Below are positions 2,012 through 5,806 of a DNA stretch of 64,000 bases, piece by piece. Numbering within the stretch: position 1 is the first letter of the stretch; every line of letters begins with the position of its first letter. A program made the position numbers and the translations under genes. The DNA is from a virus. Lineage: Duplodnaviria; Caudoviricetes. The notes below the pieces were generated by a model. It was not told where the DNA came from and made no database searches. It saw only the letters and a list, made by a program, of their open reading frames with translations. The DNA is taken from positions 128,001 through 192,000 of IMG/VR virus record IMGVR_UViG_3300014000_000001. One strand, given 5' to 3'.

Positions 2012-2041
2012 AGATCATCCATCCCAAGGGATGGATGATCT
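2012..2041. terminator. bidirectional terminator between convergent genes
   Basis: AGATCATCCATCCC-AA-GGGATGGATGATCT, flanked by GCATAA and TTATGC. Confidence 0.8.
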
Positions 2042-2052
2042 TATGCTATCTA

Positions 2053-2394
2053 TCAATATTGTCTAAATGGGTCAACGTTCTCTTGCCTTAGTTTTTTTTC
2101 GTTCGCTCGAATCTCCTTCTCTAAAGCTTCATCTAATACGTTCTTATCTCCACGACGTAGAAGTTTCACCCAGTCTTTAATTAACCAATCGCACATCCAG
2201 TTAGGAAGCTTGATGAATTCATTAAAGCTCATGTTTGCACTTTCAGCAAGTCCTGAGTTACAAAAGTCAGCGAAGACCTTAGCAATACCTTTATAATCTT
2301 CAAGGTGCTCACTATCGTTATATGCAATGACTTCGTAAGGGTCTTCAGGCTTTTGCTCTAAAAACGTCATGTGAAAGAGTTGGCGTTTGATCAT
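2053..2394 (-). CDS. tail assembly chaperone C-terminal (GT/gp51-like) domain; frame open upstream to 2601 and probably reached by a -1 frameshift from the 570-aa ORF
   Basis: MSFNEFIKLPNWMCDWLI resembles the GT/gp51-type 'S..E...MP.W' motif. No clear SD before ATG 2394. Stop-free frame continues through the slippery site. Confidence 0.65.
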   Translation of the reverse strand: MIKRQLFHMTFLEQKPEDPYEVIAYNDSEHLEDYKGIAKVFADFCNSGLAESANMSFNEFIKLPNWMCDWLIKDWVKLLRRGDKNVLDEALEKEIRANEKKLRQENVDPFRQY

Positions 2395-2555
2395 CGAGAG
2401 TTCAAACCCATTTAACTTACCATCATAACCTTTTTTGATGCGACCAATATTATCAACGATTAAACCCCAAAGGTCTTGAGTGTAAGCAGGGTGCTCAAGG
2501 TTAAAAATATGAGTACCCCACTTTTGTTTAAACTTGGCTTGATAATCGTCATCGA

Positions 2556-2590
2556 ACCCTACGGGTTGCGGGCCGCTAGGATAAAAAAAC
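2556..2590 (-). other. candidate programmed -1 ribosomal frameshift site (T TTT TTT plus GC-rich stem)
   Basis: Minus strand reads CGT TTT TTT ATC CTA GCG GCC CGC AAC CCG TAG GGT. The -1 frame reads FFYPSGPQPVGFDDDYQAKF... and is continuous with ORF 2053-2394. Confidence 0.7.
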
Positions 2591-4271
2591 GACTCACCGC
2601 ATCAATTGGAGTATAAATTGCGGTGCCGTTGTTATTGATCACATTGGATAATTCACCGCAACTTGGGCAAGTGTTGGTGGGTACTGCAAGTACTGCTGCC
2701 AAACGCGATGCAGTTACTCGGCGAATATCATCGTAAATTTTATTACGAATCTCTTCGTTATTACTTAATGTATGGAAAGTTTTACGAATCGCTTCTTCAT
2801 CACGGATTTCTTCCCCATCAATTAAGAACCCATCCACCCAATGCGATACATCAAGCGCTGCAGTGGCCGCCATCTGACGTTGAATCATTTCATTACGGGT
2901 TTCTTCATCCACATTAGTTGTGATTGCATCATCCACTGAATCGATGACAGCTTCAATCCACTTTTCCCCGATTTCAATATGTTTTGCCGCGTTGGGAGCT
3001 TTAAGGATTAAACTAACCCCATTAGCCACTTCAATTATATCTCGTTCATGCATACGTCCTAAACGTTGATACTTTTGAATATCTTCAACGGTTGCTTTAT
3101 CTGCAGACAATGGTTTTGCAATGAATGACTTTTGCCAATCGTTAAACATAGATGAATCAATTTGTGGCAGTAGCATTAAATCAATTAAAGATTCATGACG
3201 ATGACCACATAATCCTTTCTTCGGTTTTCCATCTTCATCTAAGATTGGTTTTTTATCAGCATCCAATCGTGTTTTAAGACCACCACAAGTTTCAACATAA
3301 TTATAACCACGTTGGAATCCAGACGCCATTAACGCCCACGCCATGATTTGAATATCACGATGATCGATATATTGGAAGATATCAGCCCACAAAGATTTAT
3401 CTACGTTACTATCTACCACTTGATTCATGAATTCTTTCATGATGATGCGGTTAGCATAATAAGCAGATGACCCATGAATAATTCCATTAGTACTGCGTAG
3501 GATATCTAAATGGGCGTTATTAACCTTATCCACCATAGCGACTCGTGCAGCTTTAGATAAAGGTTCTATTGCGAACACTAGACCTGAATGCCATAAACGC
3601 ACTAATAAAGAAGAACCAATATCTAAACGACGGAACAATACAGTAATAAGTTGCTCGTGATTTTCTTTATTGGCTAAAGTGTTACCTTGTGCTTTGGTTG
3701 CGAAGTTAATCTTATTGGCACGTAATTTACGTCCATCAACATTTAAATGATCATCCCAACTTGCACCTTCACGAGCACAGAAGGAGAACATATGTCGATC
3801 CATGACGACTTTATTTTGCTCGGCATAATCAATCATCCGTATATCGGTTTCACTACCGCGACCATTTTCTAAACGATCTACGCTGATGTTTGCGGTAATC
3901 TCCATAGTGTTTGGATTACGTGCCCAAACAGCCAATGGATAATACGTGAGCTTTTCATCAGTTGCTTTTTTAATAGCGTCTAAACTTGTACCAATGGAGT
4001 AATCAGAGCTACCATATTTTTTACTCTTTGCTTCTTGTTCGACTGCAACTTCGACCACAGTCTGATCATCACTGTGATAGTCTTCATTTTCTTCTTTAGT
4101 GAGTTCAACCGTTTCAAATTCCGATTCAGTTTCATTCTTTGCAGGTTGTTGAACTTCAGTAGTTTCCTGAGTAGTTTCAGGAATATCTTTAGCTACCTTT
4201 TTAGTTGAAGTGCGTACGCGTGGTTTACGTACAGGTTTGGTTTCATCAACTTTGTTTTCTTGATCGCTCAT
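2559..4271 (-). CDS. putative tail/baseplate-hub assembly chaperone (T4 gp26-like; phiKZ gp77 position)
   Basis: 570 aa with an acidic disordered N-terminus, Cys motifs ETCGG/LCGH and TCPSCG, ending just past a slippery heptamer; synteny. Confidence 0.55.
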   Translation of the reverse strand: MSDQENKVDETKPVRKPRVRTSTKKVAKDIPETTQETTEVQQPAKNETESEFETVELTKEENEDYHSDDQTVVEVAVEQEAKSKKYGSSDYSIGTSLDAIKKATDEKLTYYPLAVWARNPNTMEITANISVDRLENGRGSETDIRMIDYAEQNKVVMDRHMFSFCAREGASWDDHLNVDGRKLRANKINFATKAQGNTLANKENHEQLITVLFRRLDIGSSLLVRLWHSGLVFAIEPLSKAARVAMVDKVNNAHLDILRSTNGIIHGSSAYYANRIIMKEFMNQVVDSNVDKSLWADIFQYIDHRDIQIMAWALMASGFQRGYNYVETCGGLKTRLDADKKPILDEDGKPKKGLCGHRHESLIDLMLLPQIDSSMFNDWQKSFIAKPLSADKATVEDIQKYQRLGRMHERDIIEVANGVSLILKAPNAAKHIEIGEKWIEAVIDSVDDAITTNVDEETRNEMIQRQMAATAALDVSHWVDGFLIDGEEIRDEEAIRKTFHTLSNNEEIRNKIYDDIRRVTASRLAAVLAVPTNTCPSCGELSNVINNNGTAIYTPIDAVSRFFILAARNP

Positions 4272-4921: not shown

Positions 4922-5806
4922 ATGTTTGATGAATTATTTACGGAATATCTCTTTCGGGTATTCCCCGAAGAATATGCAGCTATGATCATGAGTGCACGGG
5001 AAGCGTTAATGGTTTATGAGTATGCGCTTTGTGAAGCTAACCTTTATAAAACCATGCCTGAAGATTCTGATATTGATTTAGCGACATCTAAAATCTTAAT
5101 TCAACAATGTTTGAAAGATGGTTTTAATCAAGTCTTTGCGGTGATTGGAATTCGTTCCCGTTTGGATTTAAGTGATATCCATGCAATGGATCAACTACTT
5201 CGTTCATTGAAGAACTTAGAAGAATCATCAGATCACGAAGCAATTGTTAATATCGTGATTAATGATCAATACTCCCAAGCTGAAATTATTGAAGAACTCT
5301 TTAAATTAGTAGTGTTAGATGATAATTTCATTAATATTTTGTTAGAGTTTGATTTAACTGATACCAATGATTTTATTAATCGTCTTTATGACTTACATAG
5401 TCGCGCATTATTGAATCGTGTTGGTGAGGCTACTGAAGACCGTCCTGATCGTACTTACCTAGATCGCATTCGGTCATTTGTGGATAAATACCCACAAACC
5501 ATTGTGGCGCGAAAGTTTGAGGCTAAGCAAATTCTGTTTGGTCAAAACTATCAACATTATATTGCTGAAAATATGGCAGAGTTACAGCAACTTTATCCAA
5601 ACTACCCTGATCGTACTCCGATTGAGTTTTTAGGATTAGCGTTCTTTGCCAATATTCAACGTCATGATTTATCAGGTCACGTTAAAACAGCGATTGCTAA
5701 GTTTTATAATGATCTTAAATTTACAACCCAAACCAATATGATGGTGGATAAACTTATCGAGGAGATTGAGAGAGATGGCATCAGTCAACCTGATCGAATG
5801 GTTTAA
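4922..5806 (+). CDS. hypothetical/virion-associated protein (phiKZ gp79 position)
   Basis: 294-aa ORF, SD AAGGT, upstream TATG at 4882; overlaps the RNAP subunit gene. Confidence 0.7.
   Translation: MFDELFTEYLFRVFPEEYAAMIMSAREALMVYEYALCEANLYKTMPEDSDIDLATSKILIQQCLKDGFNQVFAVIGIRSRLDLSDIHAMDQLLRSLKNLEESSDHEAIVNIVINDQYSQAEIIEELFKLVVLDDNFINILLEFDLTDTNDFINRLYDLHSRALLNRVGEATEDRPDRTYLDRIRSFVDKYPQTIVARKFEAKQILFGQNYQHYIAENMAELQQLYPNYPDRTPIEFLGLAFFANIQRHDLSGHVKTAIAKFYNDLKFTTQTNMMVDKLIEEIERDGISQPDRMV

Follow-up and report, generated by a model that had tools for sequence, protein, structure and literature searches.

A probable −1 ribosomal frameshift at a conserved U_UUU_UUY site in the core gene cg18 of Chimalliviridae

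The locus and its two reading frames

The 64,000-nucleotide stretch of viral DNA analysed here, hereafter the window, covers positions 128,001 to 192,000 of the IMG/VR record IMGVR_UViG_3300014000_000001, whose full length is 232,790 bases. Its minus strand carries a gene of 570 codons, a homologue of phiKZ gp77, followed by a small open reading frame (ORF) that gene callers treat as separate. The larger ORF ends in CGT TTT TTT ATC CTA GCG GCC CGC AAC CCG TAG. The run of seven T in this gene end is best read, judged on the sequence, as a programmed −1 ribosomal frameshift site from which a 570-residue and a 739-residue product would be made, a reading to which a probability of roughly 0.84 is assigned. 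The features concerned are the following.

2559–4271, minus strand: zero-frame ORF of 570 residues (the short form), homologue of phiKZ gp77 and of the Chimalliviridae core gene cg18
2583–2589, minus strand: slippery heptamer T TTT TTT (U_UUU_UUU) at the codons for the conserved Phe562-Phe563, in X XXY YYZ phase
2599–2601, minus strand: TGA that shuts the −1 frame five codons before the first slipped codon
2053–2589, minus strand: −1-frame extension of 178 codons plus stop (2055–2053), giving the 739-residue long form if joined
2559–2582, minus strand: dual-coding overlap, ILAARNP-stop in the zero frame (kept in orthologues) and YPSGPQPV in the −1 frame
2395–2558, minus strand: 164-nt 'intergenic gap', coding in the −1 frame, free of ATG, GTG and TTG and homologous to the N-terminal part of the relatives' small gene
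2053–2394, minus strand: 113-residue ORF as seen by gene callers, making up the last two thirds of the −1 domain, with a conserved NMSFNEFIKLPNW helix region
2556–2582, minus strand: candidate small hairpin (AUCCUAGCGG...CCGUAGGGU) directly 3' of the heptamer, clade-local and unproven
2013–2040, minus strand: terminator-like inverted repeat with T tract, just past the −1 ORF stop, at the end of the transcription unit

A sequence-only reading of this DNA had earlier described the ORF end with its heptamer at 2589–2583, an open −1 frame beginning after a nearby TGA, the absorption into that frame of the 164-nt gap and of the 113-residue ORF lacking a Shine–Dalgarno sequence, and a fusion of about 739 residues. 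All of this is found at the locus. Seven sense codons separate the run from the zero-frame TAG (2561–2559), the −1 frame is open for 178 codons and covers both the gap and the small ORF, and joining after residue 561 yields 561 + 178 = 739 residues, with FFYPSGPQPVGFDDDYQAK as the predicted junction peptide. Since the TGA at 2601–2599 lies five codons ahead of the first slipped codon, a start of the −1 ORF further upstream is impossible. The earliest ATG, GTG or TTG in the −1 frame is the ATG at 2394, 65 codons from the slip site; no Shine–Dalgarno sequence precedes it in the window, and the public gene call for the downstream ORF is a 105-residue protein using an ATG after 2394. With no start in the first 65 codons of the extension, the whole domain would be made in the window phage only by a slip. 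Given the −1-frame stop density in the body of the ORF (0.146 per codon), the 63 stop-free codons before any start have a P of about 5e-5, and TTT is used for only two of the 13 Phe codons elsewhere in this ORF.

No terminator-like site lies between the 570-residue ORF and the −1 ORF. The inverted repeat at 2013–2040 is a perfect one of 12–13 bp with a T tract, faces a convergent plus-strand ORF that ends at 1999, and is likely a bidirectional terminator.

Conservation of the candidate slip site and of the −1 frame

A tblastn search with the 570-residue protein matches 140 jumbo-phage records, PHIKZ077 included. The protein is homologous over its core to the cg18 family and its gene occupies the conserved position beside the homologues of gp78, gp79 and gp80; by core alignment and synteny it is the homologue of phiKZ gp77. 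In the core-gene table cg18 is a hypothetical protein, represented by Goslar gp081, phiKZ gp077 and RAY gp267 (Prichard et al. 2023, PMC10299810). The phiKZ gp76/77 position, to which the sequence-only reading had pointed, is the correct one, the orthologues of the two ORFs being gp77 and gp76.4.

A comparison of orthologues, proposed earlier as a check for a shared heptamer and an open −1 frame, takes in 34 loci: the window, five metagenomic relatives, 18 IMG/VR contigs (some near-identical) and named phages, with about 24 deeply diverged lineages among them. The named phages are phiKZ, Psa21, FLC9, phiEaH2, Proteus 10, RSF1, PCH45, AH06, RAY, Halocynthia JM-2012, Goslar, 201phi2-1, RTH11, Xoo-sp14, PS119XW, PhiEaH1, pir03, Noxifer, Moabite, Eowyn, sm033 and Totoro. 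Both signals are kept in 33 of the 34 loci: the conserved Phe-Phe is encoded by an in-phase N TTT TTY, and from the heptamer onwards the −1 frame has no stop for 151–186 codons. This family-wide conservation supports the original proposal of a hidden −1 frameshift joining the 570-residue ORF to the downstream one. The first ATG, GTG or TTG of the −1 frame lies anywhere from +10 to +87 codons across the 33 loci, and the extension is near constant in length when counted from the heptamer, not from any start codon; the small gene is annotated at 80 to 155 residues (80 in phiKZ, 155 in Psa21). The exception is the record of the Xanthomonas phage RTH11, in which both conserved frames are present and one T too few sends the upstream ORF into the third frame. 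At about 1840–1870 of this record (OQ790161.1) there are seven T where the layout needs eight (ACG ATT TTT TTa), and the annotated ORF has 627 residues; the discrepancy is probably a homopolymer error in the record.

Before any start, 23 lineage representatives together hold 887 stop-free linker codons, for which each ORF's own −1-frame stop density gives a joint P of about 1e-37, an order of magnitude only, as the lineages are taken as independent and are not fully so. On the same assumption, the use of TTT as first Phe codon of the site in 23 of 23 representatives, against 30% TTT elsewhere in the ORFs, has a joint P of about 1e-14; in Xoo-sp14 none of the 14 other Phe codons is TTT.

What never varies is an in-phase U_UUY tetramer with UU in front. 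Ahead of this comes U in most lineages; the Psa21-like phages, PS119XW, FLC9, L032 and Noxifer have A or G at that base. Most lineages have runs of seven or eight T; in at least seven the run is only five or six T long and the phase is kept, with A TTT TTC in PS119XW, G TTT TTC in Noxifer and T TTT TTC in L009, Xoo-sp14, pir03, sm033 and phiEaH2. Among E. coli tetramers U_UUC and U_UUU rank just after A_AAG, and H_HH.U_UU.Y is among the efficient heptamers (Sharma et al. 2014, PMC4066793). The X_XX triplet may consist of non-identical bases, for example G_GU in phage T7 gene 10 (Atkins et al. 2016, PMC5009743).

The zero-frame end is conserved as well. After the Phe-Phe it reads PIDAVSRFFILAARNP-stop in the window, PIDMLSTFFTLAASKSNRMV-stop in phiKZ, PLDVVSTFFTLAGQRVNP-stop in Psa21 and PIDAMATFFTLLGQKV...-stop in FLC9, following a pattern I/T-L-A-A/G... 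with the stop at the orthologous place; across the surveyed loci the tail has 9 to 46 codons. The conservation of both tail and stop position suggests that the short and the long form are each under selection.

Evidence for coding in the −1 frame comes from close relatives and from strains of the same species. The downstream proteins of the closest relatives (154–165 residues, 45–59% identity) align to 84–86% of the stop-to-stop −1 frame of the window, gap included. In the relatives L005, L007, L009, L012 and L015 the gp77-like gene ends in the same CGT TTT TTT (TTC in L009), the open stretch of the −1 frame begins shortly ahead of the site, and the peptide that leads from the site to their ATG is conserved. 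The window has ACT at the position of the ATG of L005, L007 and L009; it has evidently lost the independent ATG kept by its nearest relatives, so that its full domain would depend on the slip. Between the zero-frame stop and the ATG of the relatives lie 14 codons, over which pairwise differences within the window clade number 68/36/110 at −1-frame positions 1/2/3, a distribution that argues for coding-type substitution in the −1 frame; the annotated part of the downstream gene shows the same pattern (220/155/328). Within the species, six bases of the gap vary: four are third positions with synonymous changes, and the other two make up a single K>R replacement. All eight further assemblies have neither a stop nor a new start in the gap and keep the ACT.

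The same holds at greater distance. The peptide encoded by the 218-nt 'gap' of phiKZ matches the annotated N-terminal part of Psa21 gp83, and the −1-product motifs GH[VIL]..FG and L..REAY..DYGI are encoded ahead of every start codon in phiKZ, FLC9, AH06, RAY, PCH45, PhiEaH1 and Moabite. For phiKZ the predicted junction peptide spans ...STFF/YFGGLEVKPDGVVNDLR, and the short and long forms would have 533 and about 687 residues. In the Erwinia phage RAY the start of gp266 (1740–2288) is annotated 135 nt inside gp267, an arrangement by which the annotator got round the long open −1 frame.

Proposed mechanism and competing explanations

The locus combines the signs of a −1 frameshift site: an in-phase heptamer, an open −1 ORF with no nearby start, and conservation with coding-type substitutions. 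Ribosomes on the gp77-family mRNA would meet CGU UUU UUU AUC with tRNA-Phe on both UUU codons, and a fraction would slip one base back, the A-site tRNA re-pairing from UUU to UUU and the P-site tRNA to the preceding U UU. The slipped ribosomes would then read the −1 frame across the overlap, the 164-nt gap and the 113-residue ORF. Two proteins sharing residues 1–563 would result, a short form of 570 residues ending in ILAARNP and a long form of 739 residues with an added helical C-terminal domain of about 176 residues. By analogy with other frameshifts in phage morphogenesis genes, a fixed ratio of short to long form would serve assembly.

The sequence-only reading had pointed to a possible stem after the heptamer. 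Such a stem can indeed be drawn at 2582–2556, but a stimulatory role for it is not supported: it is clade-local, its bases are dual-coding and include the stop codon, and its energy is undistinctive, the 70 nt after the site in the window being no more stable than shuffled sequences (z 0.2). The hairpin of this clade begins 0–2 nt after the site, with an inner CGG/CCG helix at about 7 nt, and L009 and L012 fold an equivalent of it.

A number of points weigh against the frameshift. Folding of the 70 nt after the site with RNAfold at 32 loci gives no shared stable structure, with z near 0 in most, and no Shine–Dalgarno-like element upstream of the site is found family-wide; with no stimulator common to the family, the efficiency of the slip may be low or modest. 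The close relatives L005 to L015 have an ATG of their own 11–25 codons after the site, from which the domain could be made independently. A nearly complete domain might in principle begin in the window itself at an ATT that lies two codons past the lost ATG and has GGGG 7 nt ahead of it. Longer homologues fused in one frame were not found, which is weak evidence, a 687-residue match from ctLnO19 in BFVD (a collection of predicted viral structures) having been left out of this check. Finally, layout and conservation are what is observed, the steps of the mechanism are inferred, and the functional assignment given below comes from predicted models. A 686-residue phiEaH2 match in BFVD, considered as a natural fusion, was rejected: it owes its size to a long N-terminus and has the same two-frame layout at GTT TTT TTC.

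The most substantial of the rival explanations, albeit an unlikely one, places the slip in transcription: the phage RNA polymerase (RNAP) would stutter on the seven-T run, and transcripts with eight U would encode the 739-residue fusion in a single frame. Runs of seven or eight T in most lineages would suit such a process, and UUUUUUU is avoided in E. coli genes, possibly because of slippage (Sharma et al., PMC4066793). However, slippage usually needs 8–9 or more residues, and the runs of only five or six T in at least seven lineages fall short of this. The in-phase U_UUY is moreover invariant, and phase is needed by a ribosome and not by a polymerase; its retention in the short runs favours ribosomal slippage. 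At a phiKZ-like locus, contigs from RNA libraries of four studies span the slip site together with the entire gap and show the seven T unchanged, two of them ending where the −1 ORF ends; this is weak support, as such contigs are blind to minor species (a rare U8) and to translation, and DNA may be present in the libraries. In the phiKZ-like phage PA7, RNA contigs of two independent studies end at 4131–4133, just before the −1 ORF stop (4140), which hints at a transcript 3' end; PA7 also shows a one-base strain indel at 4141.

That the locus simply holds two separate genes is distinctly improbable. The downstream ORF would then start at the ATG at 2394, the next ATG or the ATT, and the open −1 frame would have no function. 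This is how the genes are listed in every record whose annotation was examined, and the ATG 11–25 codons past the site in close relatives, like the candidate ATT of the window with its GGGG, fits that listing. It leaves unexplained, however, the stop-free linkers of up to 87 codons with conserved motifs before any start, the constant length of 151–186 codons from the heptamer, the bias to TTT at the site and the coding-type substitutions in the 14 codons ahead of the relatives' ATG, and the ATG at 2394 lacks a Shine–Dalgarno sequence. Hardly credible is an artefact or decay, in which the gene would have eight T in truth and be one continuous ORF, or else be a frameshifted pseudogene. Homopolymers are error-prone, and the RTH11 record is seemingly one T short at this very run; yet the two-frame layout recurs in eight further assemblies of the same species and in 33 loci overall. 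The assemblies come from other samples, differ by 2–16 bases over 588 nt and have seven T in every case. A gene with eight T would also lose the ILAARNP tail, so the conservation of zero-frame tail and stop speaks against it. Together the assemblies and the tail rule out both the homopolymer error, which the sequence-only reading had named as its refutation, and the pseudogene.

Carried over to the family, the ribosomal frameshift leads to a wider proposal that is likely to be correct: all Chimalliviridae (phiKZ, Goslar, PCH45, RAY, 201phi2-1) would make two isoforms of cg18 by an unannotated U_UUU_UUY −1 frameshift, the protein would be a ratio-controlled hub assembly factor, and the domain of the long form would be mis-annotated as a separate or truncated small gene. 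Such a pair would be an equivalent of the G/GT principle in a gp26/gp51-like protein. In some phages, that of the window included, the slip would be the sole route to the full domain.

Gene neighbourhood, predicted fold and known frameshift systems

The neighbours of the gp77-like gene match the phiKZ gp78–gp80 block, with a 189-residue ORF, a PHROG 5038 protein and an RNAP beta subunit, followed by a DNA polymerase; further neighbours are small unknown ORFs. The gp79-like ORF (4922–5806) overlaps the RNAP beta-subunit ORF (TTG start at 5766) by 41 nt (5766–5806), and the gp79/gp80 pair of phiKZ overlaps in like manner. Searches of the region by blastn against a phage collection and of IMG/VR with the −1 domain as a single protein gave no match.

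Pfam, PHROGs and NCBIfam offer no functional family for the gp77-like protein (PHROG 4585 is of function unknown), and the structural evidence is therefore given by predicted models. The AlphaFold2 (AF2) model of the 570-residue protein has a pTM of 0.68 with residues 1–119 disordered. This segment (3915–4271 in the window) is rich in Lys, Glu and Thr, with a pLDDT of about 30; the N-terminal 120 or so residues are unalignable between lineages and explain most of the size variation of the family (489–690 residues). For the core, a Foldseek search of the PDB and VIA-align against 48,161 chains return only common helical-hairpin matches (Z ≤ 7.1). In BFVD, jumbo-phage homologues come first and are followed by more than 15 models of T4-like baseplate hub assembly proteins, chaperones or hub subunits (E 2e-5 to 1e-2, TM by target 0.43–0.56). 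In the ESM Atlas, residues 205–563 superpose on a cluster consisting entirely of PF12322 (T4_baseplate) proteins with a TM of 0.66 by target over 230 of 242 residues, a comparison between predicted models on both sides; the next unrelated rows reach 0.15–0.30. A feature search gave the same gp26/gp51 lead.

Sequence models do not follow suit. PF12322 matches 0 of 24 family members at E ≤ 1 and NCBIfam none; a six-frame search of the genome with PF12322 finds nothing, which carries little weight as control genomes are likewise silent; and hhalign of the family against T4 gp26, T4 gp51 and a gp51 alignment gives probabilities of 29%, 4% and 19% over 15–28 columns. Thus the resemblance to T4 gp26/gp51 put forward by the sequence-only reading holds for the predicted fold and the BFVD matches but not for sequence models: in the models, the core (residues 120–570) is gp26/gp51-like by fold over residues 205–563, and it is not a member by sequence. 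The profile and AF2 analysis of both halves, suggested at the same time, yields this fold lead for the gp77-like half, but hhalign is not significant and no fold is assigned to the −1 domain. The AF2 model of the latter is helical (mean pLDDT 60, best part residues 100–170) and has no PDB match at E ≤ 0.001. A preprint on the Goslar virion structure lists gp13, gp48, gp203 and gp62 as the hub and does not mention gp081 or gp082, which fits a non-virion assembly factor. As far as the models go, the gp77-family protein probably has a T4 gp26/gp51-like fold and acts in baseplate-hub assembly without being part of the virion.

If the frameshift is real, the annotation of two genes would be corrected in every chimallivirus genome, where the start of the small gene is now arbitrary, and a second protein isoform would be added to the core proteome of the family. 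The predicted fold provides the first functional lead for cg18, as a gp26/gp51-like hub assembly factor, and the site offers a natural, stimulator-poor U_UUU_UUY sequence for studies of frameshifting on Pseudomonas, Erwinia, Vibrio and E. coli ribosomes. Particular to the window are the lost independent ATG and the strain-level polymorphisms that testify to coding in a gap with no start. The sequence-only reading knew of no such description for phiKZ-like phages, and a search of the literature on phiKZ, Chimalliviridae, jumbo phages and gp77/cg18 bears this out, yielding no frameshift paper; the genome records whose annotation was examined carry no frameshift annotation.

Of the known systems, the E. 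coli dnaX gene, which encodes tau and gamma, uses a −1 frameshift on A_AAA_AAG with an upstream Shine–Dalgarno element and a downstream hairpin. The present site resembles it in that bacterial ribosomes would slip in tandem on a homopolymeric heptamer and one gene would give rise to two isoforms; it differs in that no stimulators were found and in that the shifted form is the longer one, whereas in dnaX it is the shorter. T4 gp26/gp51 (PF12322) share the predicted fold of residues 205–563 and the presence of Cys pairs, but the protein described here has no sequence-model match, is twice as long and bears a disordered N-terminus. T4 gene 26 (T4 2303–2929) is annotated with two products, gp26 and gp26' from an internal start, in place of which a frameshift would operate here.

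Phage lambda G/GT and the conserved −1 frameshift in the tail assembly chaperone (TAC) genes of long-tailed phages were reportedly described by Levin et al. in 1993 and by Xu, Hendrix and Duda in 2004. Shared with them are a downstream ORF lacking its own start and expressed only as a frameshift fusion, a layout conserved while the sequence has diverged, and a likely tail-related role in assembly at a fixed ratio. Unlike in lambda, the upstream protein has 520–690 residues compared with about 140 (the 570 residues of the window being four times the G protein), and the slip site is U_UUU_UUY compared with the G_GGA_AAG type. The TAC family gives no Pfam or PHROG match, and the TAC of HK97 appears in the PDB Foldseek search only at E 3.1 with probability 0.13. 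The label of a G/GT-type tail chaperone, given in the sequence-only reading, is accordingly not borne out in view of the missing family match, the size and the position beside the genes for virion RNAP and DNA polymerase; the remark that the gene is not next to a tape-measure gene was correct, the locus lying outside the tail tube and tape-measure module.

A further parallel is offered by gene 10A/10B of phage T7, a −1 frameshift that Condron, Atkins and Gesteland are said to have reported in 1991. In both, the slip goes back one base on a U-rich site (G GUU UUC in T7) a few codons ahead of where a morphogenesis gene ends and yields, or here would yield, a minor isoform with a C-terminal extension; the X_XX bases are not necessarily identical, and no classical stimulator is apparent nearby. 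Unlike T7 10B, which adds about 50 residues to a capsid protein, the long form described here would add about 176 residues, a separate conserved domain, to a non-capsid protein, and both the phage family and the protein family are different ones. The principle of −1 frameshifting in phage morphogenesis genes is known, and its probable presence in this core gene of a much-studied phage family is new to the literature searched.

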